Assembly (NCBI GenBank): GCA_964374065.1 | Contig: CAYJWW010000002.1 | Span: 4,153 to 68,152 of the forward strand | From: an uncultured Candidatus Saccharibacteria bacterium | GTDB taxonomy: Bacteria > Patescibacteriota > Minisyncoccia > UBA6257 > 2-01-FULL-56-20 | DNA: 64,000 nucleotides | Direction: 5' to 3' | Part shown: piece by piece, positions 39,773 through 63,902 of the stretch | How the letters are laid out: each line of letters starts with the position of its first letter | Numbering within the stretch: the stretch's first letter is position 1 | Translations under genes and position numbers: made by a program | Notes under the pieces: model-generated | The model's database searches: none | What the model saw: only the letters and a program-made list of their open reading frames with translations | What the model was told of the DNA's origin: nothing

Positions 39773-41227
39773 ATGCTCAGGAAACTCCAAAATCTGTTGT
39801 TTGTAAATCAAAGCGTCCGCCAAACGATAGTGAAAAACGCGTTTTGGCTTTCGTTCGGAGAAGTTCTTGGAAGGGTTCTTCGGACGGGGGTCGTCATCTA
39901 CGCGGCCCGCGTGCTGGGCCCCGCAACCTGGGGCGTTTTCTCATACGCCGTGAGCCTCGCCGCGCTGCTTACTATTTTTTCGGAAGTCGGCCTGGGAGGC
40001 GTCTTGATCCGCGAGGGAGCAAAGAGCGAGGCGCTGCGGATGAAATATTTTTCGACGATCTTCTTCGTGAAGCTTCCGCTTGCGCTATTGAGCTTTTTTT
40101 CCATCCTGCTTCTCGCACCCCATATCGCGACAGTGCCGCTTTCACGGGCACTAATTCTTGCAATCGCATTCCTGTCTCTCTTCGACTCGATGCGGGGATT
40201 CGGGACCGCGCTCTTCCGAGCTGAGGAAAAAATGGAGCGCGAGGCGGCGGTGAATATCGTCACGCAAGGCGTGATCCTGATCGCCGGACTGTTTGTGCTC
40301 CTGCGCAGCCCGTCGCCAGAAGCGCTCGCGTCCGCATATATGATCGGCGCCGCTGCAGGGCTGCTCGTCGCGACGATCTGGCTCGGACGACACCTCGGTG
40401 CGCTTTTTTCCCATTTCGACAAATCAATCCTCATCTCGATCCTTCGAACCGCATGGCCATTCAGCATCGTGGGCGTACTGGCGGCGATCACGGTGAACAC
40501 CGACACCATTATGCTGGGCTGGCTTCGAGATGCAGCGGAGGTCGGCTACTATTCCGCCGCCCAGAAACCGATACTTTTCCTCTATATCCTCCCTTCGCTT
40601 CTGGGAGGGAGCTTCTTCCCTGCGCTTGCCCGATTCGCTGCAAACGATGCGCTTCGCTTCCGCATGGTCCTTGAAAAAGGGCTTAAGGTCGTTTTTTTTG
40701 TCGCGCTTCCGGCAGCAGCGGGCCTTTTCTTCACCTCTTCCGCAACGACGGAACTTCTGTATGGACCCGAATATGCTCCCGCTGCCGCACCGCTCCAGAT
40801 CCTCGCGCTCACGCTCCTCACTGCGTTCCCGATGAACCTCGTAGTGAACGGCATTTTTGCCTATAACCGACAGCGGGACCTCATCCTCTTCGGCGCCGTG
40901 GGCGTTCTTGGGAATATAATCCTGAACTACCTCTTCATCCCGCACTGGGGAGCCTCGGGCGCCGCTTGGTCGACGCTCATTACCCAGTTCATCAGCAACG
41001 GGTTTATCTGGATGCGGCTCCGAGCCCTCAATCGATTCTCCGTCTTCCGCTCGCTCCGCAAAGTGCTTATCGCGACGATTGCGGTCGGGCTTGTCGCTGC
41101 CCTCGCCCAATCCGCCGGGATGCCCGTCGCGCTCGTCGTAGCCCTCGCTGCGCTCACCTATGGCGCAACGCTCCTGCTTCTCCGAGAAGAGCTCTTCATC
41201 GAGCTCAAGAGGATACTCAAAGAGTAG
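39773..41227 (+). CDS. wzx: oligosaccharide flippase (Wzx, MOP superfamily)
   Basis: 484 aa, about 12-14 TM helices, polysaccharide-biosynthesis-protein family features. Confidence 0.7.
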   Translation: MLRKLQNLLFVNQSVRQTIVKNAFWLSFGEVLGRVLRTGVVIYAARVLGPATWGVFSYAVSLAALLTIFSEVGLGGVLIREGAKSEALRMKYFSTIFFVKLPLALLSFFSILLLAPHIATVPLSRALILAIAFLSLFDSMRGFGTALFRAEEKMEREAAVNIVTQGVILIAGLFVLLRSPSPEALASAYMIGAAAGLLVATIWLGRHLGALFSHFDKSILISILRTAWPFSIVGVLAAITVNTDTIMLGWLRDAAEVGYYSAAQKPILFLYILPSLLGGSFFPALARFAANDALRFRMVLEKGLKVVFFVALPAAAGLFFTSSATTELLYGPEYAPAAAPLQILALTLLTAFPMNLVVNGIFAYNRQRDLILFGAVGVLGNIILNYLFIPHWGASGAAWSTLITQFISNGFIWMRLRALNRFSVFRSLRKVLIATIAVGLVAALAQSAGMPVALVVALAALTYGATLLLLREELFIELKRILKE

Positions 41228-41267
41228 TCTTCACTTTTTGGGACGTTCGCGGTAATAATGAAGAGCC

Positions 41268-44069
41268 ATGCAGTATGGACCTCTTAAGCGTGCCTTCAAA
41301 AAACGGCGGGCGCATGTCGCCGTCGTAGGCCTTGGGTATGTCGGGATTCCGACCGTTTTGGCGATGGTTCGCGCCGGCATACGCGTCACGGGCATCGACA
41401 TCGATAAAAAACGCGTCGCCGATCTGAACCGAGGCAAAAGCTTCATCGCGGAAATCCCCGATGCGGCGATACGGGAAGCGCAAAAAAAATTCCGCGCGAC
41501 CACGGACTGGAAGGAGCTCAGGAAGGCAAATGCCGTCCTGATCGCGGTCCCTACGCCGCTTACGAGGAATAAAACCCCCGACACCTCCGCGATCGAAACG
41601 GCGGCGAAAAACATTTCAAAATCTCTGCGAAAAGGGACTCTGGTCGTTCTGGAAAGCACGACGTATCCGGGGACGACGGAGGAACTTCTGCGACCGATTC
41701 TCGAGAAATCCGGCCTCAGGGCGGGGAAGGATTTCTATCTCGCGTTCGCGCCGGAGCGCGTGGATCCCGGAAGCAAACATCGTTTCACCGATATTCCGAA
41801 AGTGGTGGGCGGTATTGACGCACGCTCGACCGAGCTTGCGGCGGCGCTCTATGGAAGCTTTTTGAGAGGGGTTCATCGCGTATCTTCGCCGCGCGCCGCC
41901 GAGATGACCAAACTCCTCGAAAACATCTTCCGGCTCGTGAATATCTCGCTCGTGAACGAATTGAAGATGATCGCGGACAAAATGGGAATCGACTTTTGGG
42001 AAGTGATAGAGGCGGCGAAAACCAAACCGTATGGCTTCATGCCGTTCTACCCCGGCCCCGGCGTCGGCGGCCACTGTCTCGAGAAACACCAACGCGTCGT
42101 AATTGAAGAAAAGAGGGAAGTGAATGCATACACGATGGAGGAACTCTATCGAAAGTATGCCGATGCGTGCGTGAAACGTCAGCCGGCATTGGTTGCGGCG
42201 GCACAAGAAAATGTCTCTGACGGGCACACTCTTGCTTTTTCAAAAAATACACATCATTCAGTAAATTCCCCTCTCGCTCCTTTTCGCGTTGCCTCGTTTG
42301 ATTCTAATAAAGGCACAATTTCCTTTGAGCGGGTTGACTTTATCTCGAAACGAGAGAGTAATCACGTCCTTAACATTAAATGCCATTACAACCGAGAGCT
42401 TCGCGTCACGGACGAGCATCCTCTTTATGTGTGGGACGAAGGGACTAAGACACTACGAGTCAAGTGGGCAAAAGACCTCCGGCCGGGTGAGTTTCTGGTA
42501 TATCCTCGGTTACTTCCTCAATCAACTCGAGTTCCCGCGTATGACCTTATCGCAGCACTCCAAAAACAATTCCCATCGCTTATACCACGATATCGAGTCA
42601 AACTTAAGGAAAGGCTCTGGCGCGACTACAAAGAAAATCTCGACCCTTGCTTCGTAGGAGACGATAAAAAACAGGATTACCTGAAAAACAACTCTATTCC
42701 TTTAGAGGAGTACCTTCGCATCGAGAAAAATCTTCCTGTCCCGAGAACAAAAATCCTTCTCGTAAGCGGCCGTGGGTCTTCGTTCGGCACGCTACCTGCT
42801 ATTCTTTCGTTTGATTCCGAATGGGCGAGGCTTTTGGGGTATTACTTAAGCGAGGGGTGTATCACTGAAGACGCGAAAACAATGGGCATAAGATGGACAT
42901 TCCACTCTAAAGAGAAGGAGTACATAGAAGATGTGGAGGCTATACTGCGCAATAAAGGGATCGCTTTTTCTACCTACCAAGATGAACAGTGGCGGAGTTT
43001 TCATATCAAAGTATCTTCAACGCTTCTTGCGCTTTTCTTCCAAGACATTCTTCATACCGGCGTTGACTGCTACACCATGCGCATACCCCAAGAGCTTTTT
43101 ATGAGCGCGCCAGAATTTCGAAAAGAAGTGCTAGCTGGAATTTTACGCGGCGATGGTGGGGTGTGGCGCACTAATCGTCCAAACTCTTATCGCAAAAACG
43201 GCCGTTCTTACACGCATCACAATAACTCTATCGAACTGTGTTATTTCACGTCTTCTCCGATACTCTTCGAACAAGTACAACTCATATTGAATGAGCTGGG
43301 CGTAATCTATAAACTCGAACGGCGACCGGGCCTCATAAAGATGAAAGGGCCCGAAAATGCACGGACCCTCGCTGTGCTTTTTTCGGGAGCAAAACGACAT
43401 CTCGTCGAAGATTATCTTCGACAGATCTCTAAAAGACCTCATTATGATTATGCCCGCACCACTGACGGCTATGTCCTGATTCGGGTAAAAACAATAACAA
43501 GAATCGAGGAAGTTCAAGATGTATATTCGTTAGAAGTGAACCGCCATAGCACATTCCTTACTAATGGAGGTCTTGCGATTCACAACTGCATCCCCTTAGA
43601 CCCTTTTTATCTCTCATGGAAAGCCCGCGAATATAATTTCTTCACCCGCTTCATCGACCTCGCCGGAGAGATCAATGAACTCATGCCGCATCACGTGGTA
43701 ACAAAGGTCATCTGGGCCCTGAATGCCCGCGGCAAAGCCGTGCGAGGCGCAAAAATACTCGTGCTCGGCGTCGCCTACAAGAAAGACATCGATGACCCGC
43801 GCGAATCACCCGCGATCCCCGTGATCTGGGACCTCTTGCGCAAGGGCGCGCGGGTCGTCTACAATGACCCCTTCGTTCGCACTCTGCGCGTGAATGAAAA
43901 AGAGCTTCGCTCTTCTCCCCTCACGAAAGACGCCGTGAAGGACGCCGACTGCGTCATAATCCTCACCGATCACGGCGCCTACGATTACCCGATGCTCGCG
44001 CGCCACGCAAAATGCCTCGTCGATACGCGCGGAGCGATCAAGACGCGCGGACCAAACATCATTTCGTAA
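41268..44069 (+). CDS. UDP-sugar 6-dehydrogenase (WbpA/TviB-like nucleotide-sugar dehydrogenase) carrying a 504-aa intein; the spliced enzyme would be 429 aa
   Basis: N-terminal Rossmann motif VVGLGYVGIP. The catalytic motif is split as GPGVGGH | intein | CIPLDPFYL, which rejoins to GGHCIPLDP. C-terminal UDP-binding domain is present. Confidence 0.85.
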   Translation: MQYGPLKRAFKKRRAHVAVVGLGYVGIPTVLAMVRAGIRVTGIDIDKKRVADLNRGKSFIAEIPDAAIREAQKKFRATTDWKELRKANAVLIAVPTPLTRNKTPDTSAIETAAKNISKSLRKGTLVVLESTTYPGTTEELLRPILEKSGLRAGKDFYLAFAPERVDPGSKHRFTDIPKVVGGIDARSTELAAALYGSFLRGVHRVSSPRAAEMTKLLENIFRLVNISLVNELKMIADKMGIDFWEVIEAAKTKPYGFMPFYPGPGVGGHCLEKHQRVVIEEKREVNAYTMEELYRKYADACVKRQPALVAAAQENVSDGHTLAFSKNTHHSVNSPLAPFRVASFDSNKGTISFERVDFISKRESNHVLNIKCHYNRELRVTDEHPLYVWDEGTKTLRVKWAKDLRPGEFLVYPRLLPQSTRVPAYDLIAALQKQFPSLIPRYRVKLKERLWRDYKENLDPCFVGDDKKQDYLKNNSIPLEEYLRIEKNLPVPRTKILLVSGRGSSFGTLPAILSFDSEWARLLGYYLSEGCITEDAKTMGIRWTFHSKEKEYIEDVEAILRNKGIAFSTYQDEQWRSFHIKVSSTLLALFFQDILHTGVDCYTMRIPQELFMSAPEFRKEVLAGILRGDGGVWRTNRPNSYRKNGRSYTHHNNSIELCYFTSSPILFEQVQLILNELGVIYKLERRPGLIKMKGPENARTLAVLFSGAKRHLVEDYLRQISKRPHYDYARTTDGYVLIRVKTITRIEEVQDVYSLEVNRHSTFLTNGGLAIHNCIPLDPFYLSWKAREYNFFTRFIDLAGEINELMPHHVVTKVIWALNARGKAVRGAKILVLGVAYKKDIDDPRESPAIPVIWDLLRKGARVVYNDPFVRTLRVNEKELRSSPLTKDAVKDADCVIILTDHGAYDYPMLARHAKCLVDTRGAIKTRGPNIIS
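42075..43586 (+). mobile_element. intein with a LAGLIDADG homing-endonuclease domain, inserted at the catalytic Cys codon of the dehydrogenase
   Basis: Starts with Cys (CLEKH...) and ends with His-Asn followed by a +1 Cys. Block B TDEHPL; two LAGLIDADG motifs (LLGYYLSEGCI, LAGILRGDGGV). GC is markedly lower than in the exteins. Confidence 0.8.
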
Positions 44070-44071
44070 CA

Positions 44072-44872
44072 ATGAAATTTTCCATTATCGGGACCGGTTT
44101 TATTTTCCCGCGCCATGTGGACTCCATTACGCGCGTCGGCGGGAAGATCCGGCACATCGGCAATACCGCCCGCGGCGAAGGAGAGTGGCGCGACATCGTC
44201 CGCAAAACCGACGCGGATTGCGTCGTCGTCCTCGGCCCCAACGATCTCCACTACTCCATGACACAGGAGGCCGCCGAGGCGGGGAAGATCGTGCTCTGCG
44301 AGAAACCGCTCACCATAGATTCCCGCGACGCGGAATCGCTCGCGAAATACCGGAACGTGTTTACCGTGCTCCAGCTCCGCCATCACCCGATCGCAAAAAA
44401 GCTTGAAGCCGAAATTAATCCGAATGAAACGTACGAAATCGAAATGGATATTTCCGTATATCGTGACGGTGCAGGATACTACCACACGTGGAAAGGAGTC
44501 CGGGAACGGAGCGGCGGCGTGCTCTTCATCATCGGCATCCACTACTTCGATATGCTGCTCCACCTTTTCGGAGCCTCCACCCGCACAGAGACGCATTCGC
44601 TCGACCAAAAAACCGGCACCGGGGTCATCGAAGGGAAGAACTACGCGTGCAATTGGAAAGTGAGCACCGATGCGCCGAGGGACAACCAGCGCCGTACATT
44701 CAAGATCAACGGCGTGGATTATAACTTCTCTTCGCAAGACAACCTTTCCTACGAGAATCTCCATACATGCGTATACGAAGACTTGCTCCAGGGGAAAGGG
44801 ATCGCGCCGGCGCAGGCGCTTCCTTCCATCCGACTCGTGGAAGAACTTTACAAGAACATCGAAAAGGCGTAG
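44072..44872 (+). CDS. Gfo/Idh/MocA-family NAD-dependent oxidoreductase (WbpB-like UDP-sugar 3-dehydrogenase)
   Basis: MKFSIIGTGFIFPRHV Rossmann start and the EKPL motif; directly follows the dehydrogenase. Confidence 0.7.
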   Translation: MKFSIIGTGFIFPRHVDSITRVGGKIRHIGNTARGEGEWRDIVRKTDADCVVVLGPNDLHYSMTQEAAEAGKIVLCEKPLTIDSRDAESLAKYRNVFTVLQLRHHPIAKKLEAEINPNETYEIEMDISVYRDGAGYYHTWKGVRERSGGVLFIIGIHYFDMLLHLFGASTRTETHSLDQKTGTGVIEGKNYACNWKVSTDAPRDNQRRTFKINGVDYNFSSQDNLSYENLHTCVYEDLLQGKGIAPAQALPSIRLVEELYKNIEKA

Positions 44873-44903
44873 AGTCTTGCCGGTTCCAGGAAAGGAGCAT
44901 GCC

Positions 44904-45320
44904 ATGATCCACCCGAACGTAGTCCTCTATCGGCGCGAGCTCTCGAACATCGCCGACGGGGCAACCATCGGCGAAGGGTCGAAGGTCCACTCCCACGTCT
45001 GGATCGGCCCCCGAGTCGTGATCGGCGCGCGGTGCAAAATCCAGGCGTTCGCATTCATCCCGGACGGAGTCACGATCGAGGATGATGTTTTCCTCGGCCC
45101 GCGCGTTACGTTCACCAACGACGCTCACCCTCCTTCGGGCGGGAAGGGCTGGGAATCGACGCTCGTGAAGCGCGGCGCCGTGATCGGCGCGAACGCGACG
45201 ATCCTCCCCGGAGTCACGATCGGCGAAGGCGCCGTGGTCGGCGCCGGAGCGGTCGTCACGAGAGACGTGCCGGATCACGCGACCGTGGTCGGCAATCCCG
45301 CGCGCCCTATCAGACGGTAG
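44904..45320 (+). CDS. hexapeptide-repeat (LbH) N-acetyltransferase, WbpD-like
   Basis: Left-handed beta-helix repeats (IGEGSKVHSHVWIGPRVVIGARCKIQ...). SD AAGGAG lies upstream; 138 aa. Confidence 0.7.
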   Translation: MIHPNVVLYRRELSNIADGATIGEGSKVHSHVWIGPRVVIGARCKIQAFAFIPDGVTIEDDVFLGPRVTFTNDAHPPSGGKGWESTLVKRGAVIGANATILPGVTIGEGAVVGAGAVVTRDVPDHATVVGNPARPIRR

Positions 45321-45372
45321 GGCGCGTACCATTTCTCTTTTCCTTAACTCGCCCTCGGGGTATTCTTTTTTC

Positions 45373-46500
45373 ATGCAGTTTATCGACCTCCCGGCTCAAT
45401 ACCGCAGGCTAAAACGGGACATCGACCGCGCAGTGTTGAAAACGATCGGGGCGGGCCAATTCATACTCGGCGCGAACGTTGCCGAACTCGAGTCGAGAAT
45501 TGCGAAACTGGCGGGCACCGCGCATTCGGTCGGGCTCAACTCCGGCACCGACGCGCTCTTTCTTACGCTCAAGGCGCTGGACATCGGCCGCGGCGACGAG
45601 GTAATCACCACGCCGTTTTCGTTCGTCGCAACCGGAGAGATGGTCGCACAGACGGGAGCAACGCCCGTGTTCGCGGATATTAATCCGAAGACGTATACCA
45701 TAGAACCCTCGCAAATCAGGCGCGCGATCACGAAGCGCACGAAAGCCGTCATCCCCGTCCACCTTTACGGGCAGATGGCGGACATGCGGTCGATCATGCA
45801 AATCGCGAAACGGCATCGTCTTGCGGTCATCGAAGATGCCGCGCAAGCGCTCGGGGCAAGACAGGCCGGCGCGGGCGGGGCGAACGGCAGGTGGCGGGCG
45901 GCGGGCTCGATCGGGCATGCGGGATGTTTCAGTTTTTTTCCCACGAAAAACCTCGGGGCGTGCGGAGACGGCGGCATGATTACGACGAACGACGGGGTTC
46001 TTGCCGAACGGATACGGCTTCTCCGGAACCACGGATCCCGAAAAAAGTATCATCACGAATTTCTTGGATATTCCTCCCGCCTCGACGAACTTCAGGCGGC
46101 GATCCTTCTCGTGAAACTCCCCCATCTCAAGAACTGGAATTCCGCGCGGGCGAATATCGCCGCGAATTATACTGCGCAACTCCGAAACATCCCGACGCTC
46201 GCGACTCCCGTGCGTGCCCCCGGGAACACTCACATTTTTCACCAATACACCGTCCGCACTCCAAGACGAGACGCGCTTCGCGCGTATCTCGAAAGACGCG
46301 GGGTCCCGACGAGCGTTCATTATCCGCTTCCGATCCATCTTCAACCGTCATTCCGCTATCTGAAACTTACATCGGGAGCGTTCCCGGAATCCGAACGCGC
46401 AAGCCGCGAAGCGCTGTCGCTGCCGATATATCCGGAAATCCCCTCGCGCGATATTGTTCGAGTCGTCAAAACAATCAGAGAGTTCTTCTCGCGATCATGA
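45373..46500 (+). CDS. DegT/DnrJ/EryC1/StrS-family PLP-dependent sugar aminotransferase (WbpE-like)
   Basis: 375 aa; conserved aminotransferase fold with a PTKNLGACGDGG lysine region. Confidence 0.85.
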   Translation: MQFIDLPAQYRRLKRDIDRAVLKTIGAGQFILGANVAELESRIAKLAGTAHSVGLNSGTDALFLTLKALDIGRGDEVITTPFSFVATGEMVAQTGATPVFADINPKTYTIEPSQIRRAITKRTKAVIPVHLYGQMADMRSIMQIAKRHRLAVIEDAAQALGARQAGAGGANGRWRAAGSIGHAGCFSFFPTKNLGACGDGGMITTNDGVLAERIRLLRNHGSRKKYHHEFLGYSSRLDELQAAILLVKLPHLKNWNSARANIAANYTAQLRNIPTLATPVRAPGNTHIFHQYTVRTPRRDALRAYLERRGVPTSVHYPLPIHLQPSFRYLKLTSGAFPESERASREALSLPIYPEIPSRDIVRVVKTIREFFSRS

Positions 46501-48234: not shown

Positions 48235-48262
48235 CGCTTCTTTCGCTTATAATCCCGCTCGC

Positions 48263-49576: not shown

Positions 49577-49603
49577 GAAAGCGGGCGTCCGGATCCAACA
49601 TCC

Positions 49604-50266: not shown

Positions 50267-50271
50267 ATCTG

Positions 50272-50868: not shown

Positions 50869-50872
50869 CCGT

Positions 50873-51667: not shown

Positions 51668-51676
51668 CATGAATAT

Positions 51677-52763: not shown

Positions 52764-52767
52764 CAAA

Positions 52768-53265: not shown

Positions 53266-53291
53266 ATCCAGCGGAATAAAAGCCCGCCTTA

Positions 53292-54578: not shown

Positions 54579-54669
54579 TCTCTGCTGATTCTCCCTATTA
54601 TAAGCTCTATGCCGGGTAGTGAAAATCCGGCCCGGCAACAACTAACAAGTCGAATTTCTACTGCCCGGT

Positions 54670-55791: not shown

Positions 55792-55860
55792 TGGCTTGCT
55801 TTTTTTGAATTATTTGGAGTAATATTCCGAATCAGCCGCGGAGGTCGCGGCCATGAATAT

Positions 55861-57714
55861 ATGGGACCACTTATGCGTTTCGCCGAATCGCTTCGCGCGC
55901 ACAAATTTTTCGCCTTCGCCCCTCTTGACGCGGCCCTCACCGCGCTGTCCCTTCTTGCGGCATTTTACTTGCGCTTCGATCTCTCATTCCCGCCGCAATA
56001 TGCCGATGTGTTTTGGACGGCCGTCCCCGTTCTCGCGATCCTGAATATCGCCTTTCTCCTTCGCTATAATCTTTACTCGTTCACGTGGTCCTTCGTGGGG
56101 CTTACGGAATTGGGCCGGCTCATTAAGGCGCTCACCTTTGCAAGCGCATTTTTCGCGCTCGCCATTCTCGCCGACAGGGAAACGACTAATGTTTTTGCGG
56201 GGTTCCCGAGATCGGTCGTTCTTATCGGCTATATTTTGAACGTTGTGCTCATTGGCGGCGTTCGGATCGGCAAGCGCCTGTGCTCGGAAATCGTGCTCCG
56301 CAAGCCTCCGCTCGGAAGCGCCCGGACGATAGTGGTTGGCGCGGGAAGCCAAGGTGAGCAGATCATCAGGAGCCTTCGCCTCGCAGGCACTGCAATAGAC
56401 ATCGTGGGGATCATCGACCCCAACCCCGCGAAACAAAATACGCTTATCCATAACATCCGCGTGATCGGACGCATAGATGACATCCCTTCGCTGGTCGTTG
56501 CGCACCGCGTGGAAAGCGTGGTAATCGCGCTTGGCGAAGCGCACGGCGACTACATTCGAAAAGCCGTACGCCGAGCGCGGGAAGCACGGGTTCAGAAAAT
56601 CAAGATCATTCCCCAGTTCTCCGACCTTCTGGGACAAAAAATCAGCTTCGAAGCGCTCCGCGATGTTTCGGTTGAAGACCTCTTGGGCCGCGATCCGGTG
56701 CAAATCGACACCCAAGAGATCAGGTCGTTCGTGAACGGCAAGAGGGTTCTCGTGACGGGCGCGGCGGGTTCGATCGGGAGCGAGATCTGCAGGCAGCTCG
56801 TGTCTTTCGGGCCGCACGAGATCTTCATGCTCGATTTCAACGAGAGCGGCCTCTTTGATATGGAAGCGGAGTTCAAAATGAAATTCCCCGAACAGGCGAT
56901 CCGGCCCCTTATCGCAAGCATTACGAACACCTCGAAGATCAAGGGGCTTTTCCAAAAGTTTCGGCCCGAGGTCGTATTCCACGCGGCCGCGTACAAGCAC
57001 GTTCCTTTAATGGAGGAGTGGCCGGATGAAGCTGTCGCTACGAATATTTTCGGAACCGCGGTTCTTGCCGAGGCCGCCAGGGAAGCGAATGTGAAAAAAT
57101 TTGTTCTTATCTCCACGGACAAAGCCGTGAATCCCACCTCGATCATGGGACAGACGAAACGGGCCGCCGAGCTTGTGGTGCAGGCGGAGAACGAGGCGGG
57201 GCCGACCAGGTTCGTCTCGGTGCGGTTCGGAAATGTCTTGGGCTCCCGAGGCAGCGTGGTGCCCCTCTTCGAGGAACAGATCCGGCGCAGGGCGCCGATC
57301 ACGGTCACACACCCCGAGATGCAGCGCTATTTCATGACGATCCCGGAAGCGGCGCTCCTTGTGCTCGAAGCAGGAGCCGTAGGGAGCGGAGGCGAGGTGT
57401 TTATTTTAGATATGGGGAAGCCCGTGAAGATCGTGGACCTCGCGCGCGAGCTCATCCATCTCTCCGGACTCGAACCAGACAAGGATATCCCGATCGTATT
57501 CACCGAAGTGCGCCCGGGAGAGAAGCTTTTTGAGGAACTTCTCACCGCCGAAGAACGGGCGCAAGGCGCCACTAAATGGCAAAAAATATTCGTTGCGCAG
57601 GGGGCGAAGCCGAAGGATGCGCAAACGATTCGCGTGCGCCTCCGCGCGCTTCAGAGTGCGCTTCATGATTCCTCGACGGACCTTCGCGAAAAAATCAGGG
57701 CGTTTATCGAATAA
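55861..57714 (+). CDS. membrane-anchored UDP-GlcNAc 4,6-dehydratase (CapD/WbpM/PglF family)
   Basis: Four N-terminal TM helices, then two Rossmann folds (VVGAGSQGEQ; VLVTGAAGSIGSEI) and a YKHVPL catalytic region. Confidence 0.8.
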   Translation: MGPLMRFAESLRAHKFFAFAPLDAALTALSLLAAFYLRFDLSFPPQYADVFWTAVPVLAILNIAFLLRYNLYSFTWSFVGLTELGRLIKALTFASAFFALAILADRETTNVFAGFPRSVVLIGYILNVVLIGGVRIGKRLCSEIVLRKPPLGSARTIVVGAGSQGEQIIRSLRLAGTAIDIVGIIDPNPAKQNTLIHNIRVIGRIDDIPSLVVAHRVESVVIALGEAHGDYIRKAVRRAREARVQKIKIIPQFSDLLGQKISFEALRDVSVEDLLGRDPVQIDTQEIRSFVNGKRVLVTGAAGSIGSEICRQLVSFGPHEIFMLDFNESGLFDMEAEFKMKFPEQAIRPLIASITNTSKIKGLFQKFRPEVVFHAAAYKHVPLMEEWPDEAVATNIFGTAVLAEAAREANVKKFVLISTDKAVNPTSIMGQTKRAAELVVQAENEAGPTRFVSVRFGNVLGSRGSVVPLFEEQIRRRAPITVTHPEMQRYFMTIPEAALLVLEAGAVGSGGEVFILDMGKPVKIVDLARELIHLSGLEPDKDIPIVFTEVRPGEKLFEELLTAEERAQGATKWQKIFVAQGAKPKDAQTIRVRLRALQSALHDSSTDLREKIRAFIE

Positions 57715-57801: not shown

Positions 57802-60243
57802 TTACAGTTCATCCAGCACGCTCCACTTGCCCTGCCTTGCGAGGTCGATCACGATGTCCATGTCGTTTACGGCCGACGGGTCGATTTTTTTGATCGCCTC
57901 CGCGTGCCGGATCACGCCGTCCGCATTCCGGAGCAGGCGGTAGATGATCACCGCGTCATAATGGTAATCCTTTTTCTGCGGATGGAATGAGGTTAACACC
58001 TCGAGTACATCCGCCATTTCCTCGTATTCCCCCCATGTGCGGTAAAGGACAACCATATTCTTCAGGTCGCTCTCGAGGAATAAGTAGTATTGGGTCGCCG
58101 ACGGATCGTTCCCTGGATACGGCTCGCCGCTTCCCAGTTTCGTCCGCGCGAACTCGCGCGCGTTGTTCATCTCCGCCGCCGCTTCTTCGCGGTAACTGTC
58201 TCCTTGCGGTGTGCCGCGGAACTTTGCCGAATCCGCCGCGAGCGCGAGATTGACTGCGAGCTCGTAGTGCGATTTCGCCAGTCGCGCTTCGAGCGCCAAC
58301 GTCTCTCGCGAGAGCGCGATCGCCTCCTCGTACCTATCCTGCCCCGCAAGGGTGAATGCAAGGTGGTACCGCAACCCTTGCCGCGTCGGAGAAAGTGCGA
58401 CCGCCTTCCGGGCGTATTCTTCGGTCCGGACATAGAGCGCGGGGTCGTCTTTCGCGCGTTCGTTATACGCTTCGATCAGACGAGCCCAATTTCGGGGGTC
58501 CCACGGTTCCCGCTTTGTCGCTTCTTCGAGCGCATCAAGCCCTTTGTTCACCAGCGGATCGAATTGTTTGTTCCGCAACAGATTGCTGTTATAGAGAATC
58601 TCCGCGAACTTTCCGCGAAGTTCCATCTGGAGGAAATTGTACGGTTTCAGAAAGGAATCGGATGCCTGCAATATTTTTTCTCCGACGCGGAGCTTCATCG
58701 CGTCCCGGAACGCTACGGCCTGATAGATGAGCCGACCGTTCCATGCGTAAATCATGTAGGCGAGGCCGAGACTCGCTGCGGCCGCGCACGCGAGAATGAC
58801 CGGGGCAGGCAGCCGCGCGAACCGCCCGACGCGGCCCATCGGGCCGGATTGCGCACGCTGAACCGCCGAGGTCCGCCTCTCCTCTTCATAGATAAGGAAT
58901 CCAGCGAGCGCGAAGAACGGTATGTACGAAGTTACCTGATCAAACAGAAACAGGTTCTGCACGATGTAGGCGACGACCACTCCGCCGATCGCAGCGGATT
59001 CGAGCACGGCGCCCCGCGAAAGCCGTCTCCAGAGAACCAGGAATATCGAACCGAGGATCGCAAAATATGAAAGAATGCCGACCGCTCCCTGCGTTACCAA
59101 AACGTCGGCGAACCGGTTATGCGCGCGATCGAACCAGTCTTCGGCAAAGAACGAATAAGACGGATCGTAGTGTTTGTTGTAGGCAACGCTGTAATTCTCC
59201 ATTCCCCAACCCAATATCGGGCGCTCTTTCCATGCGTCAACGCTTACCCGAAGGCCGATGAGGCGGGTGACCACGGAGGGATTCTCGAGCGTGGCCGTGG
59301 CGAGCCGCCCCATACCAGGAATCCGAAGCCAAAGCGGCGATTCCCTTGTAAGCCAGAAGGCGCCGGCGAAAAGAATGACGAATGCGAATATGGCCGCGGC
59401 CGCGGCGCGAATGCGCCTGCGTTCCGCGCTTCCGATGAGAATCAAGGCCGCGGCGAGAAGGCCCGCAGCGAACCCGACGATCGCACCTCGCACTGCGGTC
59501 AAAAATATGCCCGAAACGAATATGAGAGCCAATAATCCCGCGCCGTATTTTACAAACGCTTTTTGAGCCCTCGCACACACCAAAGCCGCCGGAGCGAGTG
59601 CGAGGATAAGATAGCTCGCGAGGAATGAGGGGTTGCCCGAGAACGACCCGGGCTGGCGGGCAAAATCAAGTCCGAAAAATACCGGCACATCGTAATACTG
59701 GAACCACGCGTAGAGCACGGAAACGAACCCGACCCCGAGCGTTATCCAAAAGAACCGCATCCAATCTCTCCGCGCAAAGAAAGCGAGGGCGAGAAGGAGG
59801 AACGCTAGGTAGTGGAGGAACCCCAGGAGCCCCTCGCCCCTCTGGAGGTCTCCGAAAAACCCTCGATATACATTCGGCGCCAAAAGCGTGCTAAAGACCG
59901 CGGAGAGCGTGAATATGGCGATCGCGAGGAACAGCGGGCTCTTTAGAGCGCCGGAAACGGAAACTCCTTCGACTGACCAGCCGTTCGCGACGATTCGGTC
60001 ATCCTTTTTCCCGATCGCGCGGATCGCGAGATATACGAACGCGCCGATCAGTGAAAGTTCCACGAGCACCCGATAGAAAATGGCCTTCGGGAATACGAAC
60101 GGGAAGAAATACCAGGAGTCGACGACCACGAGCGGCGTAAGCGCCGTGGCGAGAAGCGTCCACACGATCGTGGACCGCACAATGCGTTCGATGGACATGC
60201 GTTGCGATAAAAATTCGTTGTATGCGCGTGCCGGGCAAAGCAT
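57802..60243 (-). CDS. O-antigen ligase/polymerase-like membrane protein with C-terminal TPR repeats
   Basis: 813 aa with about 12 TM helices containing a Wzy_C-like region, followed by a TPR-rich soluble domain. The alternative start MSIERIV at 60198 is also plausible. Confidence 0.7.
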   Translation of the reverse strand: MLCPARAYNEFLSQRMSIERIVRSTIVWTLLATALTPLVVVDSWYFFPFVFPKAIFYRVLVELSLIGAFVYLAIRAIGKKDDRIVANGWSVEGVSVSGALKSPLFLAIAIFTLSAVFSTLLAPNVYRGFFGDLQRGEGLLGFLHYLAFLLLALAFFARRDWMRFFWITLGVGFVSVLYAWFQYYDVPVFFGLDFARQPGSFSGNPSFLASYLILALAPAALVCARAQKAFVKYGAGLLALIFVSGIFLTAVRGAIVGFAAGLLAAALILIGSAERRRIRAAAAAIFAFVILFAGAFWLTRESPLWLRIPGMGRLATATLENPSVVTRLIGLRVSVDAWKERPILGWGMENYSVAYNKHYDPSYSFFAEDWFDRAHNRFADVLVTQGAVGILSYFAILGSIFLVLWRRLSRGAVLESAAIGGVVVAYIVQNLFLFDQVTSYIPFFALAGFLIYEEERRTSAVQRAQSGPMGRVGRFARLPAPVILACAAAASLGLAYMIYAWNGRLIYQAVAFRDAMKLRVGEKILQASDSFLKPYNFLQMELRGKFAEILYNSNLLRNKQFDPLVNKGLDALEEATKREPWDPRNWARLIEAYNERAKDDPALYVRTEEYARKAVALSPTRQGLRYHLAFTLAGQDRYEEAIALSRETLALEARLAKSHYELAVNLALAADSAKFRGTPQGDSYREEAAAEMNNAREFARTKLGSGEPYPGNDPSATQYYLFLESDLKNMVVLYRTWGEYEEMADVLEVLTSFHPQKKDYHYDAVIIYRLLRNADGVIRHAEAIKKIDPSAVNDMDIVIDLARQGKWSVLDEL

Positions 60244-60422
60244 TCGCCGCCCTGCATGCGGATTCCATTCTACTAAGAACGGCGGATAAGTCCAGTTCTG
60301 CGGCCTATTGGCCGTATGGGACTTATTGGACTTATATATCTGATTGGCTTAGGGGCTGATCAGACCGGCAAACACAAAGCGGCCCCTTGCGGGGCCGCTT
60401 GTGCGCGTTCTAACCCAAGGGG

Positions 60423-63400
60423 TTAGTTCGCTCGCGAAAGCGTGTCTGACGGGAAGGTCTCCACGTAGACGCCGTTCGCCCAGTCGGTCGTCAGCAAGGT
60501 GTGACCCGTTGCCGAGTTATCCGACCAGACAAAACCAGCATCCTCCGCGTTAACCGCTCCATCGACGCCGGTATTCGCGTTGCCCGCTGCAGACCGCCAC
60601 GCCACACCCTTTTTGATGCTCGCGGTGGTTGCATCCACGCGAAGCACAAGCTGGGTCGAGACGCTCGAGTTCTGCCCGGGCGCGGTGACCGTACCGGTCA
60701 GGCGGTACTCTCTCGCTTGGCCAGCGGGGATGCTCTCCTCGTTGGTCAGAACGATGATGTACGTGCCTGCGGTCGAGGTGCCGCCGGTGGCCGTCGTACC
60801 GATCGTCAGGTTCGCGCCGTTCGTCAAGTCACGCAGCGTGAACGCAGCGACATTCGCTCCGAAGAGCGGAGCCGTTGCGGCCGCGGTGTTGATGTTGAAG
60901 CTCACGGTGTTCCACGACAAGATCTCGTTCGAGGTCTTATTCGTCACGGTGAACTTCAAGAGATCGTTCGAACCGCTCGTAAGAAGCGTGCCAGCAGAAG
61001 CAACAGTGATGGCAGGATAGGTCTTGTAGAGGACCTTCTCGTTGCCCTTCGCGCCGCCTGCCGCGCCGTTGTTCGTCACGGTGGTTGCAGCGCCGCTTGC
61101 TTCAAAGCCGGTTGGCCGCACGTGGGCAAAGAGACTCCGACCGGTTGTGGCGCCAGCCGCAATGGTCGTCGTATCCGCCTTCACGGTCAAGGTCTTGGTC
61201 TGATCCTTGCCGATGAGCCACGAGAGATCTTCGACGGTCACCTCGCCGGCCGCGGCGCCGGAGCCGACCGGCGAGTAGCCGTTCGTGGATCCGAGCTGCG
61301 TCGAGCCGTCAAAGAGGTATACCTTCGAAACCTCAACCGTGGACGTCGCAGCCGCTGCGGTCGAGCTTTCGTTGTTCACGAGGAGCTTCAGCTTCTTCAC
61401 GGTCAGCGCTTCCGTCGCCGCGGTAAACTTGAATTTACCGAGGACAACCTTAGAGGTTCCGGCGGACACGATGCCTGCCTTGCTCTCCGTGTCGTCCGGA
61501 GCCGTCGCAACCGTGATAGTGCCCGCGCCCGAGACCGTGATCTGAACGTTCGAGGCCATGTTGACTCCGGAGCCCGCGAACGATCCGGTGTAGGTCGGCT
61601 CATTGCCTTCCGAATCAACCGCAACGACGTCGTTGCCGGTTGTGTTATTCGTTACGGTCGCTTGAGCCAAACCGATCTCATACCGGTTGTTCGTGACTGC
61701 GGTCGCCGAGAGGTTGCCCTTTACGGTCAGGACTTTGCTCGTGCCCTTCGTGATCTTGAACTGTAAGTTCGTGAAGGTCGCCGTCGCGGACGAAGCGTTC
61801 GCGGTGGTGAGCGACTTAATGTCGGACACCCTCGTGTCGCCGTCGTAGAGCGCGAGGTTCAGCATGTCGGCGATCTGGTTGGCGTCGGTCACGCTCGAGG
61901 ACGTTGAGGTGATCTTAATGGTGTTCACCTTGATGTCATCGGCGATCGCGCGAAGGCCGAATCCGACGAACGGAACCATCTGCGTTCCCTTGACGAATGT
62001 CTGCGAAGTGGGCGTACCGGACAAGCTCAGTTCGAGCGTCGGCGCCTTGACGGTTTGCGCATTCCCGGTCAATGCCGTGCTCGGAACGATCTCCGCCGCC
62101 GCCAAGAACGTGTTGTTGTCCAGGTTCTTGACGTCCGCGCCCGCGGTAAACGCGGTCAAGGTTACGCGGATCGCGTCGCCGTCATCCCAGTTGTTCGGGA
62201 TATCTGCGGTGATCTTCAACCGGCGGGACTGTCCTGCCGTGACGTTGAAGATATCGGTGAAACTGACGCCGGCTTGGCCGTTGATGTTCGCGAACGTAAG
62301 GTCGGTTGGCCCCGCCACCACCACTCCCGTCGCAACGTCAACCACCTTGAAATCGGTCAAGGAATCATCGCCCGTGAGAGACCCGGCGGTCGTCGCAACG
62401 CTCGCGTTCAGTTTCCTGACTTCGAGGTTGTTTGCCGACGCCATCGTGAACTCAAAGAGCGTCACATCCTTGCCGTTCTTCCGAATATCGGATGCGTTCG
62501 GACCGAGGAACGACGTGGTCAAGGTGCCGCCCTGGAGCGTCAAGACATGGTGATCAGCCGCATCGGAATCAAAAGCGCCTTTCGTGACCGTCGCTCCGAA
62601 TCCGAATTGCTGCCCCACGCCATAGACGTCGGAGGCCTCCTCGACATACAGCTTCACCGTCTCATCCTTCTTCGCCGAACCGCCGATATTCGCGTAGACG
62701 TAGAAGTCCTTGCTGTCGCCCTTCAAGATCATTACCGGGCTTCCCAGCTCAAAGACGACCAAATCTTTCGCGTTGATCGATCCTGCGGTCGCCAGGGTGT
62801 CGCCCGCCGCGTTCTTCAAGACGAAACTCCCAAGGTTCGTCTTCGAAACCGTGCCGGCGTAGAAGAGCGAAACTCTCATGACTTTCACGTCTTCGTTCGC
62901 CGCAGAAAGGCGGAATTGCGATACCTGCGCGTTTTGCTGTCCAATGTTCGGATTGGACAGACTCCCTGTCTTCGTCGCAGTCAGAGTTCCGGCCGTGGCG
63001 CCCGAGATAACCACCTCGGCTCCCATAACCGGCAACCCGGAAACCGCAACATCTGCGCTTACCGCGGTCACATTGAATCCGTTGCGGTTTGCGGCGGTCG
63101 CTCCTGCGGCGATATCAGCGGAAATCGTGAGCGTCTTTACGCCGTCAACCGAGAGGTTGAGGCCGGTAAAGTTCGCTTCGTGCGAAGACGAGTTCACCGA
63201 ACGACCGGAGGTCAATCGGGATCCGCCTTCGTAGAGGTACACGTTGCTGAAATCCGCAGTCGCGCCGGCGCCAACTCGCTTCACCGTCACGGCGTTCACC
63301 ATCCCTTTTCCTGCAACATTGAATTTGAGGAGGGGGACCGCTGCGGCTCCCCTGGGGAGCGTCGCCGAAGCCGGTGAATCAGCTGCATTGCTTACGGCAA

Positions 63401-63902
63401 GTCCCGTAGCAGGAACGCTGACCGGAGGTGTCCCGGGCGGGGCGCCCGGCGGGGTAGCTACTGGCGGAGTCGCCGTAGCGAGCGCTGCGCGGCTCTTGGG
63501 CCCGAAGTACCCGACTGCCGGAGAAATGCCTTTCGCGGCTTGCCATTTGGCAAGCGCTGCTTTTGTCGCAGGTCCGAAGTACGTCGTCTCATTCCCTGCT
63601 GATCCAGCGCCGCTTTCCGAAACCTTAAACCCGTTCGCGTTCAGCGTTTGCTGCAAACACTTCACGTCGTCTCCCTTGCTTCCCGCGGTGAGGTCGCGGG
63701 TAAAGCTGCAGGCAGCCGGCGCTCCGCTTTGCGAGGAGAGTTGCGATTGCAATGCTTGAATTTGAGCGAGCAAGGCCGCGATCTGGGCCTGAAGATCAGC
63801 CGTCGATTGAGCAGACGCAACCGGGACCAAGAGCATCGCTCCTGACATCCACACCGATGTGGTTGCGGTGAGCACTACTGAAGTAAACTTTTTAGTACTC
63901 AT
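60423..63902 (-). CDS. very large secreted cell-surface protein with an N-terminal peptidoglycan-binding-like domain and about 1000 aa of Thr/Ser/Ala/Gly/Val-rich beta-rich repeats
   Basis: Signal peptide followed by a coiled segment. PG_binding_1-like motif (DDVKCLQQTLNANGF...FGPATKAALAKWQ). Low-complexity repetitive body; 1159 aa. Confidence 0.7.
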   Translation of the reverse strand: MSTKKFTSVVLTATTSVWMSGAMLLVPVASAQSTADLQAQIAALLAQIQALQSQLSSQSGAPAACSFTRDLTAGSKGDDVKCLQQTLNANGFKVSESGAGSAGNETTYFGPATKAALAKWQAAKGISPAVGYFGPKSRAALATATPPVATPPGAPPGTPPVSVPATGLAVSNAADSPASATLPRGAAAVPLLKFNVAGKGMVNAVTVKRVGAGATADFSNVYLYEGGSRLTSGRSVNSSSHEANFTGLNLSVDGVKTLTISADIAAGATAANRNGFNVTAVSADVAVSGLPVMGAEVVISGATAGTLTATKTGSLSNPNIGQQNAQVSQFRLSAANEDVKVMRVSLFYAGTVSKTNLGSFVLKNAAGDTLATAGSINAKDLVVFELGSPVMILKGDSKDFYVYANIGGSAKKDETVKLYVEEASDVYGVGQQFGFGATVTKGAFDSDAADHHVLTLQGGTLTTSFLGPNASDIRKNGKDVTLFEFTMASANNLEVRKLNASVATTAGSLTGDDSLTDFKVVDVATGVVVAGPTDLTFANINGQAGVSFTDIFNVTAGQSRRLKITADIPNNWDDGDAIRVTLTAFTAGADVKNLDNNTFLAAAEIVPSTALTGNAQTVKAPTLELSLSGTPTSQTFVKGTQMVPFVGFGLRAIADDIKVNTIKITSTSSSVTDANQIADMLNLALYDGDTRVSDIKSLTTANASSATATFTNLQFKITKGTSKVLTVKGNLSATAVTNNRYEIGLAQATVTNNTTGNDVVAVDSEGNEPTYTGSFAGSGVNMASNVQITVSGAGTITVATAPDDTESKAGIVSAGTSKVVLGKFKFTAATEALTVKKLKLLVNNESSTAAAATSTVEVSKVYLFDGSTQLGSTNGYSPVGSGAAAGEVTVEDLSWLIGKDQTKTLTVKADTTTIAAGATTGRSLFAHVRPTGFEASGAATTVTNNGAAGGAKGNEKVLYKTYPAITVASAGTLLTSGSNDLLKFTVTNKTSNEILSWNTVSFNINTAAATAPLFGANVAAFTLRDLTNGANLTIGTTATGGTSTAGTYIIVLTNEESIPAGQAREYRLTGTVTAPGQNSSVSTQLVLRVDATTASIKKGVAWRSAAGNANTGVDGAVNAEDAGFVWSDNSATGHTLLTTDWANGVYVETFPSDTLSRAN

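Follow-up and report, generated by a model that had tools for sequence, protein, structure and literature searches.

Gene content and the enzyme-surface protein pair

The window analyzed here is a 64,000-nucleotide (nt) stretch of contig CAYJWW010000002.1, from an uncultured bacterium of the candidate phyla radiation (CPR), and the locus in question occupies positions 39773-63902 of it. Eighteen tightly packed plus-strand genes (39773-57714, with gaps of -41 to +91 nt), which make up a glycan operon, converge on two minus-strand genes, one for a Wzy_C/TPR membrane protein and one for a large secreted surface protein that carries a PG_binding_1 domain. These 20 genes were the set judged, and Pfam labeled nearly all of the named ones. 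Because no NCBIfam equivalog model reached its cut-off for any gene of the locus, enzyme names are given at the family level only. Related loci compared with the window are designated by L-numbers and homologous proteins by P-numbers.

All glycan genes listed in a preliminary description of this DNA lie where it had placed them, and Pfam confirmed each of them save a proposed cupin. Family matches were obtained for the Wzx flippase, two S-adenosylmethionine (SAM)-dependent methyltransferases, a PglC-like priming transferase, two further aminotransferases, and a CapD-like dehydratase (Table 1); flippase and priming transferase are therefore both encoded in the locus (Polysacc_synt and Bac_transf, respectively). 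Of two reported glycosyltransferase family 4 (GT4) enzymes, one is clear and the other is divergent, with a weaker GT-B match. The cupin assignment was not upheld: for this open reading frame (ORF) of 133 amino acids (aa), nothing significant was found in Pfam, NCBIfam, PHROGs, or the Protein Data Bank (PDB), the best match being Cupin_7 (E = 0.049, 13.9 bits against a cut-off of 27), and no homologue was found in any related locus compared. Pfam revealed no Wzz, LCP ligase, or separate Wzy among the 20 locus genes, and the Wzy_C/TPR protein is the sole Wzy_C protein of the set.

The Wzy_C domain (PF04932) of this membrane protein was matched at residues 238-394, with 59.1 bits against a cut-off of 31.7. 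Because a PDB sequence search with the protein returned designed TPR proteins only and no match for the membrane domain, a structure model was needed to recognize its relation to the O-antigen ligase WaaL. In the predicted model (predicted local distance difference test [pLDDT] score, 90.2; predicted template modeling score [pTM], 0.87), the protein has 12 transmembrane (TM) segments, the WaaL fold, and an extracytoplasmic catalytic loop (residues 299-378). R252, R327, and H375 are invariant in 24 aligned homologues, at spacings of 75 and 48 residues. Essential residues of Escherichia coli WaaL are R215/R288/H338 (spacings of 73 and 50), and those of PglL are R224/R298/H349 (PMC3643930); the correspondence to WaaL is one of spacing and loop position, not of residue-level structural superposition. 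The C terminus forms a TPR superhelix of 310 aa (residues 501-813, with a TPR_19 match), which hydropathy and the positive-inside rule place on the outer face, on the side of the catalytic loop. The database version of this protein, P0001 (798 aa), starts 15 codons downstream of the ORF start.

The giant Thr/Ser-rich, secreted, peptidoglycan (PG)-binding protein, with which the locus was said to end beside the Wzy_C/TPR protein, was recovered as described (Pfam; 21.7% Ser+Thr; signal peptide). Its signal peptide (VASA/Q) is followed by a coiled coil (residues 34-58), the PG_binding_1 domain (64-143), a Thr/Pro-rich linker of 25 aa (143-168), and about nine beta-sandwich domains. The protein has two Cys, and the roughly 1000 residues past the linker are Cys-free and rich in Ala, Thr, Gly, Val, and Ser. 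An AlphaFold2 (AF2) model with 47 homologues in the alignment (pLDDT 83) shows the approximately nine beta-sandwich domains in a row. Foldseek searches of the PDB found resemblance only to generic Ig-like, macroglobulin, and integrin beta-sandwich arrays (TM-score below 0.2), and no known surface layer (S-layer) protein structure was matched. In 47 of 47 aligned homologues the linker is low in complexity, T/P/G/S-rich, and hypervariable, e.g., TTTTTTTTTT or GTTTGGTTTGGTTT. The family has more than 513 homologues; among the 120 matches listed, lengths are mostly 1120-1180 aa, most matches are nearly full-length at 38-69% identity, and homologues are named, where a name is given, only as "peptidoglycan-binding protein." The database version P0111 has 959 aa, i.e., 83% of the 1159-aa ORF, and the homologues back the full length with signal peptide and PG_binding_1.

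A terminator-like hairpin lies 3' of the surface-protein gene in 59 of 61 homologous loci (median minimum free energy, -27 kcal/mol; median z, -4.7) and is the predicted signature of a strongly expressed monocistronic gene. S-layer genes beside S-layer glycosylation (slg) clusters are likewise monocistronic (PMC2943079). One pair of related loci, L001 (6355-9885) and L002 (7306-9885), encodes identical 786-aa Wzy_C/TPR proteins and different upstream surface proteins, one of 1176 aa with PG_binding_1 and the other of 859 aa without it and preceded by a phage-type integrase gene. This contrast points to a putative strain-level replacement of the N-terminal anchor region.

Homologues of the two proteins came almost only from Parcubacteria/Patescibacteria assemblies, which places the organism in the CPR (Parcubacteria). 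In these assemblies the two genes are paired. With the enzyme as anchor, a surface-protein homologue was found directly upstream on the same strand in 14 of 14 genome loci (Wzy_C/TPR match of at least 350 bits) and in 17 of 20 (at least 280 bits), and likewise in L088 and L089. With the surface protein as anchor, 78 independent metagenome loci were found, 58 of which were evaluable, and a Wzy_C/TPR gene started no more than 1 kb downstream in 43 of these; for surface proteins of at least 700 bits the count was 34 of 35, the exception having its Wzy_C/TPR gene 1.7 kb away. The pairing is kept down to about 32-35% identity of the enzyme and about 40% of the surface protein, across many named CPR candidate phyla and with differing flanks.

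The glycan genes are less constant. A core module, which consists of the PglC-like transferase, the transketolase-like pair, the class I aminotransferase, the second DegT-family aminotransferase (DegT2), and the PglF-like dehydratase, accompanies the pair in L001, L005, L007, L018, and L088, and stands beside it only in nearer relatives. In L089 the pair is followed by a different glycan set (asparagine synthase, TylF-type and other methyltransferases, and a GT4 enzyme), and in L008-L011, L013, L016, and L017 no glycan gene of the window comes after it. Such persistence of the pair through changes of the glycan genes would be expected if the enzyme were an oligosaccharyltransferase bound to one acceptor, and not if it were a polymerase specific for one repeat unit. 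Furthermore, two genes whose products have canonical type IV prepilin leaders (RGFTLLELL) precede a more distant paralogue of the enzyme, P0023 (in L090), by 83 nt, as in the pilA-pilO arrangement. The enzyme thus keeps its secreted neighbor when the sugars differ, and its paralogues follow other secreted proteins, which appears to be the behavior of a protein oligosaccharyltransferase rather than of a repeat-unit polymerase.

The two prepilin-type proteins of L090 (4943-7918) are 381 and 383 aa long, carry the leader MHRRGFTLLELL.., are encoded directly upstream of the paralogue, and are candidate glycosylated CPR pilins. Homologues of pglL adjoin their pilin targets in 21 of 31 cases (PMC3643930).

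Table 1. Features of the locus, in window coordinates, with the evidence for each
Feature	Coordinates	Strand	Evidence
Wzx-type (MOP family) flippase, 484 aa, ~12 TM segments	39773-41227	+	Pfam Polysacc_synt 4e-35 (122 bits), Polysacc_synt_3; hydropathy
UDP-N-acetylhexosamine 6-dehydrogenase (WbpA/WecC/Cap5O class), intein-interrupted	41268-44069	+	Pfam UDPG_MGDP_dh N, central, and C domains
LAGLIDADG intein, 504 aa	42075-43586	+	Pfam Intein_splicing, LAGLIDADG_3; boundaries; GC content
WbpB-like GFO/IDH/MocA 3-oxidoreductase	~44072 (true start) to 44872	+	Pfam; PDB matches
Left-handed beta-helix N-acetyltransferase, 3-amino-sugar class (WlbB/WbpD/QdtC-like)	~44904-45320	+	Pfam Hexapep; PDB
DegT-family sugar aminotransferase (DegT1), nearest C3 aminotransferases	45373-46500	+	Pfam DegT 1.5e-121; PDB
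GT4 glycosyltransferase	~46497-47600	+	Pfam Glycos_transf_1, Glyco_trans_4_2
SAM-dependent methyltransferase	47560-48234	+	Pfam Methyltransf_25/11/31
Second, divergent GT4-like (GT-B) glycosyltransferase	~48263-49576	+	Pfam Glyco_transf_4 3e-10, Glyco_trans_1_4 1e-4; no NCBIfam match
Second SAM-dependent methyltransferase	49604-50266	+	Pfam Methyltransf_23; homologue kept in L001 and L005
Small monotopic PglC-type polyprenyl-phosphate sugar-1-phosphate transferase (priming)	50272-50868	+	Pfam Bac_transf 6e-62; one N-terminal hydrophobic helix
133-aa ORF (earlier "cupin")	50873-51274	+	No significant family match
N-terminal fragment of transketolase-like, thiamine diphosphate (ThDP)-type PP-domain subunit	51362-51667	+	Pfam Transketolase_N; alignment to intact orthologues
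Free-standing HNH homing-endonuclease ORF, 191 aa, GTG start	51677-52252	+	PHROGs; motif; homologues; GC content
C-terminal fragment of transketolase-like PP-domain subunit	52200-52763	+	Pfam and NCBIfam transketolase
Short Transket_pyr subunit, 165 aa, without Transketolase_C domain	52768-53265	+	Pfam; orthologues
Class I (AspC-like) pyridoxal phosphate-dependent aminotransferase	53292-54578	+	Pfam Aminotran_1_2 2e-59; synteny
Second DegT-family sugar aminotransferase (DegT2)	54670-55791	+	Pfam DegT 5e-94; PDB: C3 aminotransferases, perosamine synthase
Membrane-anchored PglF/CapD/WbpM-type UDP-GlcNAc 4,6-dehydratase (4 TM + CoA_binding_3 + Polysacc_synt_2)	55861-57714	+	Pfam 6e-113; TM segments
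Wzy_C/TPR membrane protein, candidate O-oligosaccharyltransferase	57802-60243	-	Pfam Wzy_C; fold model
Promoter-like site 5' of Wzy_C/TPR gene	60267-60294	-	
GC-rich hairpin and T-tract, intrinsic-terminator-like, 23 nt past surface-protein stop	60377-60400	-	
Secreted surface protein, 1159 aa, PG_binding_1	60423-63902	-	Pfam; composition; homologues; AF2; Foldseek; linker

Sugar genes, mobile elements, and the wider window

The preliminary description had likened the glycan genes to the WbpA-E pathway of Pseudomonas aeruginosa and the Wlb pathway of Bordetella, and at the family level this likeness holds. Four neighboring genes (41268-46500) encode a dehydrogenase, an oxidoreductase, an acetyltransferase, and an aminotransferase, in the order WbpA-B-D-E. 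Among PDB entries, the spliced 429-aa dehydrogenase extein is nearest to 4r16, 3g79, and Cap5O (3e-68 to 4e-61), with UDP-glucose dehydrogenases at 6e-38, and the top relatives of the oxidoreductase are WbpB structures (3o9z and 3oa2; 1e-23, ten orders of magnitude above the next match). The acetyltransferase matched the 3-amino-sugar N-acetyltransferases 7s43, 4mzu, 3mqg (WlbB, 1e-30), and 3fs8 (3e-33 to 1e-22), and DegT1 is related to the C3 aminotransferases DesV, QdtB, and WbpE (1e-87 to 1e-101). Where the likeness fails is in the lack of any equivalog match, in the second half of the operon, which it does not explain, and in the 2-epimerase: no WbpI/WlbD-type enzyme (Epimerase_2 or other) was found by Pfam among the 20 gene products. 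Since there is no 2-epimerase in the set, the gluco-configured UDP-2,3-diacetamido-2,3-dideoxy-glucuronic acid is a more literal prediction of the product than its manno counterpart.

The conserved core module, left over by the WbpA-E analogy, has a chemistry for which no known pathway accounts; it probably makes the reducing-end sugar. Two-subunit ThDP enzymes, e.g., the E1-like Plm8/Plm9, add two-carbon branches to 4-keto-6-deoxy sugars (PMC4802897), and by analogy such a branch addition is one possibility for the transketolase-like pair. In L092 (1-2659), the Bac_transf-transketolase module adjoins genes for a GHMP kinase, a transaldolase, a SIS isomerase, and a nucleotidyltransferase, i.e., a heptose-type pathway. 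These neighbors suggest an alternative role, in which the pair may supply sugar-phosphate precursors instead of modifying a nucleotide sugar.

The WbpA-like dehydrogenase was described as containing an intein, and it does. The element interrupts the gene at the catalytic Cys (GGH/C(LEKH...) ... AIHN/CIPLD) and has a nucleophilic Cys1, a terminal His-Asn, a Cys at +1, a splicing domain, and a LAGLIDADG endonuclease (Intein_splicing and LAGLIDADG_3 matches); its GC content is 0.46, versus 0.57 in the exteins. Two low-GC islands (0.47-0.49 versus about 0.57-0.59) were observed in the locus, one at the intein (42000-44000) and one at 50000-54000. Within the latter, the transketolase genes have a GC content of 0.39-0.44 and the HNH cassette one of 0.36, which suggests that this part of the glycan operon was acquired laterally. 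The strain-specific central genes of slg clusters also have a GC content below that of their genomes (PMC2943079). Elsewhere in the window, a free-standing LAGLIDADG ORF of 136 aa (14584-14994, minus strand; PHROG endonuclease family, 5e-27) overlaps the ligA stop (NAD-dependent DNA ligase, 14991-17159), just upstream of a tRNA-Asp (14472-14546), and is the third homing-endonuclease-type element in the 64 kb.

The transketolase subunits had been reported as split. This is correct for the separate genes of the PP and Pyr subunits and incomplete as to the cause of the split, because the PP gene is additionally cut in two by the HNH ORF, so that the enzyme is divided twice. The short Transket_pyr form is kept in relatives (orthologues of 166-168 aa in L005, L007, L018, and L088) and is for this reason not regarded as a pseudogene. 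At the region of insertion, intact PP orthologues read ...YC(K/G)P(G/N)E(K/E)(E/I)YIGL(I/V)EP.... In the window, fragment 1 ends ...YCQQ-IECPECNGTGIANGVNKK before its stop codon, with an 18-aa tail that holds a CxxCxGxG zinc knuckle, and fragment 2 begins MEETSCKKCNGTGRIW-SKFIGLTEP..., with a 16-aa head that holds a second one. Both terminal tails are missing from the intact orthologues, so that a DnaJ-type CxxCxGxG knuckle has been added to each half. The fragments are otherwise 71-75% identical to intact orthologues, and fragment 2 retains the ThDP motif SDGE...(26)...DNN.

The intervening ORF matched seven PHROGs "HNH endonuclease" families (best, 1.9e-8) and has the motif CxxC...DH...N...CxxCH; its homologues bear NUMOD3-like motifs. 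It has 18 close homologues, and all of those examined sit at the same host gene. The ORF starts 9 nt past the stop of fragment 1, and its 3' end overlaps the start of fragment 2 in another frame. As the coding frame of the second knuckle overlaps the conserved HNH 3' end, this knuckle belongs to the cassette. The split with an HNH ORF was found in five independent instances, in the window and in four further CPR genomes, with insertions at two sites that lie ten codons apart (L087 3706-5159 and L091 2670-4360 at the first; L092 2686-4099 and L084 3626-5072 at the second). Both knuckles are present in every split instance, with invariant Cys and Gly positions and variation at the remaining positions. 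In L086, an HNH homologue of 52% identity (2901-3443) lies between a Bac_transf gene and an intact, knuckle-free gene for the transketolase PP subunit and appears to be this element in its intergenic ("intronless homing") state.

The 150 best PP-subunit representatives among 1.84 billion proteins included five knuckle-headed C-terminal fragments and two unsplit proteins with both knuckles in cis. The latter are P0286 (residues 86-111, at the insertion site of the window) and P0296 (residues 142-178, at a third site), in which the knuckles make up a short in-frame hairpin with a loop of 10 or 21 residues between them. These proteins represent either what is left after loss of the cassette or a stage that preceded acquisition of the HNH gene. 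The cassette was not found in the viral contigs searched.

Other explanations of the split were considered and rejected. A group I or II intron around the HNH ORF is at odds with the absence of any Rfam match at E ≤ 1 in 51200-52900, with the mere 9 nt upstream, and with the downstream overlap, which leaves no room for a ribozyme. For a split intein, the tails of 18 and 16 aa are too short, and there is neither an intein Pfam match nor a HN/Cys junction. An alternative genetic code or read-through of the TAA codon, which would fuse fragment 1 with the HNH ORF (in frame here), fails because this frame relation is not kept in L087 and L091. Finally, decay to pseudogenes does not fit the 165-aa Transket_pyr gene and the split fragments, which keep 60-75% identity across genomes and an intact ThDP motif.

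In the cysteine-rich domain of DnaJ, two CxxCxGxG motifs jointly bind one zinc ion. The simplest reading of the two knuckles here, to which we give even odds, is that they are two halves of a zinc ribbon that form one zinc center, in cis or in trans, and so would hold the transketolase halves together without splicing. A literature search found no paper on a split gene mediated by zinc knuckles or on homing endonucleases of CPR bacteria and, as far as we found, a matched metal-binding tag on the halves of a split gene appears undescribed. Should the knuckles rejoin the halves, mobile elements would here neutralize gene disruption via a portable, metal-dependent dimerization tag, which would add to introns and inteins a third way of coping with the invasion of genes. 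Such a tag would possibly be useful as a small protein-complementation tool.

The remainder of the window is ordinary chromosome, with genes for PheS/T, MurD, GatA, DnaB, LigA, a type IV pilus set, Ddl, and an ECF sigma factor. The pilus set (17517-33087) comprises PilB (28681-30414), a PilT-like protein (27578-28651), PilC (26359-27570), a prepilin peptidase (24856-25656), and pilin-like ORFs (17517-18035 and 24252-24821), and large secreted ORFs with no Pfam match (18080-19372 and 20843-22375) are interleaved with these genes. ARAGORN identified a second tRNA-Met (6385-6457, plus strand) beside one at 6216-6289 (minus strand); it is absent from the Rfam tRNA calls at the gathering threshold.

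Interpretation and alternatives

We consider it moderately probable that the locus directs Wzx-dependent O-glycosylation of the surface (or S-layer-like) protein next to it in a monoderm CPR bacterium. The preliminary description had proposed such a role for an organism without an outer membrane, a premise that agrees with the CPR assignment (PMC5220378). The proposal has gained from the gene pairing, the pilin-linked paralogue, the WaaL fold, and the hypervariable linker, and is still to be read as an inference from genes. The following scheme builds on what is established above, namely family-level gene identities, the enzyme's fold, its invariant residues, its membrane topology, and the conserved gene pairing, and infers from these the sugar structures, the acceptor, and an S-layer nature of the surface protein. 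On the cytoplasmic face, the PglC-type transferase would prime undecaprenyl phosphate with a modified 2-acetamido-6-deoxy-hexose, itself a putative product of the PglF-like dehydratase, DegT2, the transketolase-like ThDP pair, and the class I aminotransferase. The two GT4 enzymes would extend the chain, one added sugar probably being a 2,3-diacetamido-2,3-dideoxy-hexuronic acid made by the WbpA/B/E/D-like enzymes, and the two methyltransferases would decorate it. Wzx would then flip the lipid-linked oligosaccharide, and the Wzy_C/TPR enzyme would transfer the glycan en bloc to Ser/Thr residues of the surface protein, the product of the adjacent upstream gene, with its own outer TPR domain as a presumed protein-binding arm and the Thr/Pro-rich linker after the PG-binding domain as the likeliest acceptor region. 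Held to the wall by PG_binding_1, the surface protein, whose transcript would be separate and strongly terminated, would form an outer proteinaceous layer.

Several observations weigh against O-glycosylation of the surface protein, and the case for it is drawn from gene context and family membership. The terminator between the two paired genes means that they are not strictly cotranscribed, and distant surface-protein homologues have the partner gene in 5 of 13 loci (500-700 bits) and 4 of 10 loci (below 500 bits). PglL_A (PF15864) and Wzy_C_2 gave no Pfam match at E ≤ 0.01, so the Wzy_C/TPR protein is not filed as a PglL-family member; an oligosaccharyltransferase-like function, which was to be sought by homology, is supported by the WaaL fold and the Arg/Arg/His residues and not by PglL_A, and within PF04932 ligases, polymerases, and protein oligosaccharyltransferases are inseparable by sequence (PMC3643930). 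An additional Wzy_C gene, shorter (about 450-480 aa) and TPR-free, of which there is none in the window, follows the Wzy_C/TPR gene in 18 related loci (L095, L108, L111, L118, L119, L123-L126, L151-L153, L156, L160, L167, L170, L171, and L089 10369-11769) and could encode a polymerase that partners the transferase. Together with a weak Wzz-like gene beside the phosphoglycosyltransferase-transketolase module of L091, these genes hint at polymer synthesis in some relatives. In Gram-positive bacteria with S-layers, moreover, 2,3-diacetamido-uronic acids are also components of secondary cell-wall polymers. All of these latter points, from the shared Wzy_C family onward, would suit a locus whose product is a glycolipid or a polymer of the secondary cell-wall or teichuronic-acid-like type. 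The Wzy_C/TPR protein would then polymerize this product or ligate it to a nonprotein acceptor, and the surface protein would adjoin it as a fellow envelope component or as a binder of the polymer. We regard this as unlikely, though the most serious of the alternatives: a repeat-unit polymerase should be encoded within the glycan cluster and covary with it, whereas the gene stays with the surface protein, which with its PG_binding_1 anchor needs no polymer for attachment. The lack of an LCP ligase, Wzz, or separate Wzy among the 20 genes also speaks against it, as do the paralogue behind pilin genes and the outward TPR arm, which suits a protein acceptor (PMC2943079). An LCP ligase was not found among the upstream ORFs of the window either, a weak negative because most of these ORFs have no Pfam match and the search covered the window only.

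The acceptor might also be less specific. In general O-glycosylation of the Neisseria PglL or Bacteroidota kind, many secreted proteins would be modified, the type IV pilins of the window included, and the surface protein would be at most one substrate of many. PglL-type enzymes do modify many proteins in low-complexity Ser/Thr/Ala/Pro regions (PMC3643930), the window has a full pilus gene set (PilB, PilC, prepilin peptidase, and pilin-like ORFs), and CPR genomes have several Wzy_C/TPR paralogues, some of them beside pilins. The pairing with one protein family in 34 of 35 loci, however, argues for a dedicated or at least a principal target, and multiple paralogues per genome, each with its own neighbor, suggest a division of labor, so that a general system appears improbable. 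Least credible of all, in our judgment, is that the adjacency of surface protein, Wzy_C/TPR protein, and glycan operon is only inherited gene order and that the role of the Wzy_C/TPR protein is unrelated to either neighbor. A block of ClpB, a 250-aa gene, the surface protein, and Wzy_C is kept in three loci (L001, L088, and L089), so part of the adjacency could indeed be inherited, and the strong terminator between the pair would fit; yet the adjacency survives to the low enzyme identities given above while the flanks differ, and the enzyme keeps the intact catalytic residues of a glycan-transferring family.

A wider proposal can be made, which we hold only tentatively: the family of about 1150 aa with PG_binding_1 and beta-sandwich domains may be the S-layer (major envelope) protein of Parcubacteria/Paceibacteria, with the Wzy_C/TPR protein as its dedicated O-oligosaccharyltransferase. 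The two would make up an S-layer glycosylation module kept throughout the lineage, into which variable glycan operons like the present one are plugged. The signal peptide, PG_binding_1 domain, scarcity of Cys, beta-sandwich array, and strong terminator are consistent with an S-layer protein, and the structural matches are generic only. CPR bacteria have been reported to lack lipid A, with an unresolved envelope (PMC5220378), and S-layers were seen on them by cryo-electron microscopy (10.1101/2022.04.20.488981; PMC13293708), with no protein assigned to the layers. A literature search found no paper that links Patescibacteria, an S-layer protein, and glycosylation, which, together with the unsettled makeup of the CPR envelope, adds to the interest of the locus. 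It names a candidate layer protein family, a candidate glycosylating enzyme, a predicted acceptor region, and a predicted diagnostic glycan mass, i.e., 258.085 Da for the diNAc-hexuronic acid residue, with or without a 14.016-Da methyl group. These named candidates make a vague expectation testable by metaproteomics or heterologous reconstitution. A surface glycoprotein would also be a likely contact point of these episymbionts with hosts and phages.

Comparison with known systems

For the split transketolase the nearest precedent is phage Aeh1, in which nrdA is split by mobE and the insertion-derived tails are essential for activity (PMC3045599); the split also recalls the "fractured genes" that are joined by split inteins (PMC2677866). 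An endonuclease ORF between separately translated enzyme halves, and short tails that are absent from intact orthologues, are common to these cases and the window. Here, in contrast, the tails are matched 16-18 aa CxxCxGxG knuckles with no intein match, and, unlike in Aeh1, the host is a cellular CPR genome rather than a phage, and the knuckles also occur in cis (P0286 and P0296).

With the WbpA/B/E/D enzymes of P. aeruginosa and the Wlb enzymes of Bordetella, the locus shares the same four enzyme classes in neighboring genes. It differs from them in having no WbpI/WlbD 2-epimerase, in the intein of its dehydrogenase, in matches at the family level only, and in belonging to a monoderm instead of a lipopolysaccharide pathway. 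The front end of the Campylobacter Pgl system (PglF, PglE, and PglC) likewise combines a membrane-anchored Polysacc_synt_2 dehydratase with a DegT enzyme and a small monotopic Bac_transf protein. The module here, however, has no PglD acetyltransferase and contains the transketolase-like ThDP pair and the class I aminotransferase instead, and DegT2 is nearer to C3 aminotransferases than to PglE.

The O-antigen ligase WaaL (7tpg and 7tpj) differs from the Wzy_C/TPR protein in its sequence (16-18% identity) and in lacking the extra TPR domain, and a CPR monoderm offers no lipid A-core acceptor (PMC5220378). Closer in context are the pilin oligosaccharyltransferases (P. aeruginosa pilA-pilO and Acinetobacter comP-pglL; PMC3643930), for which the enzyme gene lies directly downstream of, and co-oriented with, the gene of the secreted substrate. 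They share the Wzy_C domain with its conserved Arg/Arg/His, and in L090 a CPR paralogue stands behind pilin genes. The presumed target here is instead a 1159-aa multidomain wall protein, and the enzyme has no PglL_A and an extra 310-aa TPR domain.

The slg loci of Paenibacillus alvei and Geobacillus stearothermophilus also belong to monoderm envelopes, in which a lipid-linked glycan is made by a priming enzyme, glycosyltransferases, and methyltransferases and a Wzy_C enzyme acts last. WsfB of P. alvei is the predicted S-layer O-oligosaccharyltransferase, with Wzy_C and a C-terminal TPR, and WsaB of G. stearothermophilus comes with a separate TPR protein (PMC2943079); WsfB thus shares the C-terminal TPR architecture of the window's enzyme, as compared by described architecture and shared Pfam domain. 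The S-layer gene is monocistronic and, in Geobacillus, near the cluster, and the central genes are low in GC content, as they are here (0.47-0.49 at 50-54 kb versus about 0.57). In contrast to the slg loci, the present locus belongs to a CPR phylum, its lattice and glycosylation being putative; the anchor is PG_binding_1 as opposed to SLH domains or a secondary cell-wall polymer, the sugars are different, and export would be by Wzx as opposed to the Geobacillus Wzm/Wzt ABC transporter. The kind of locus is nonetheless one already known, a surface-protein glycosylation locus with a Wzy_C-family transferase beside its target.

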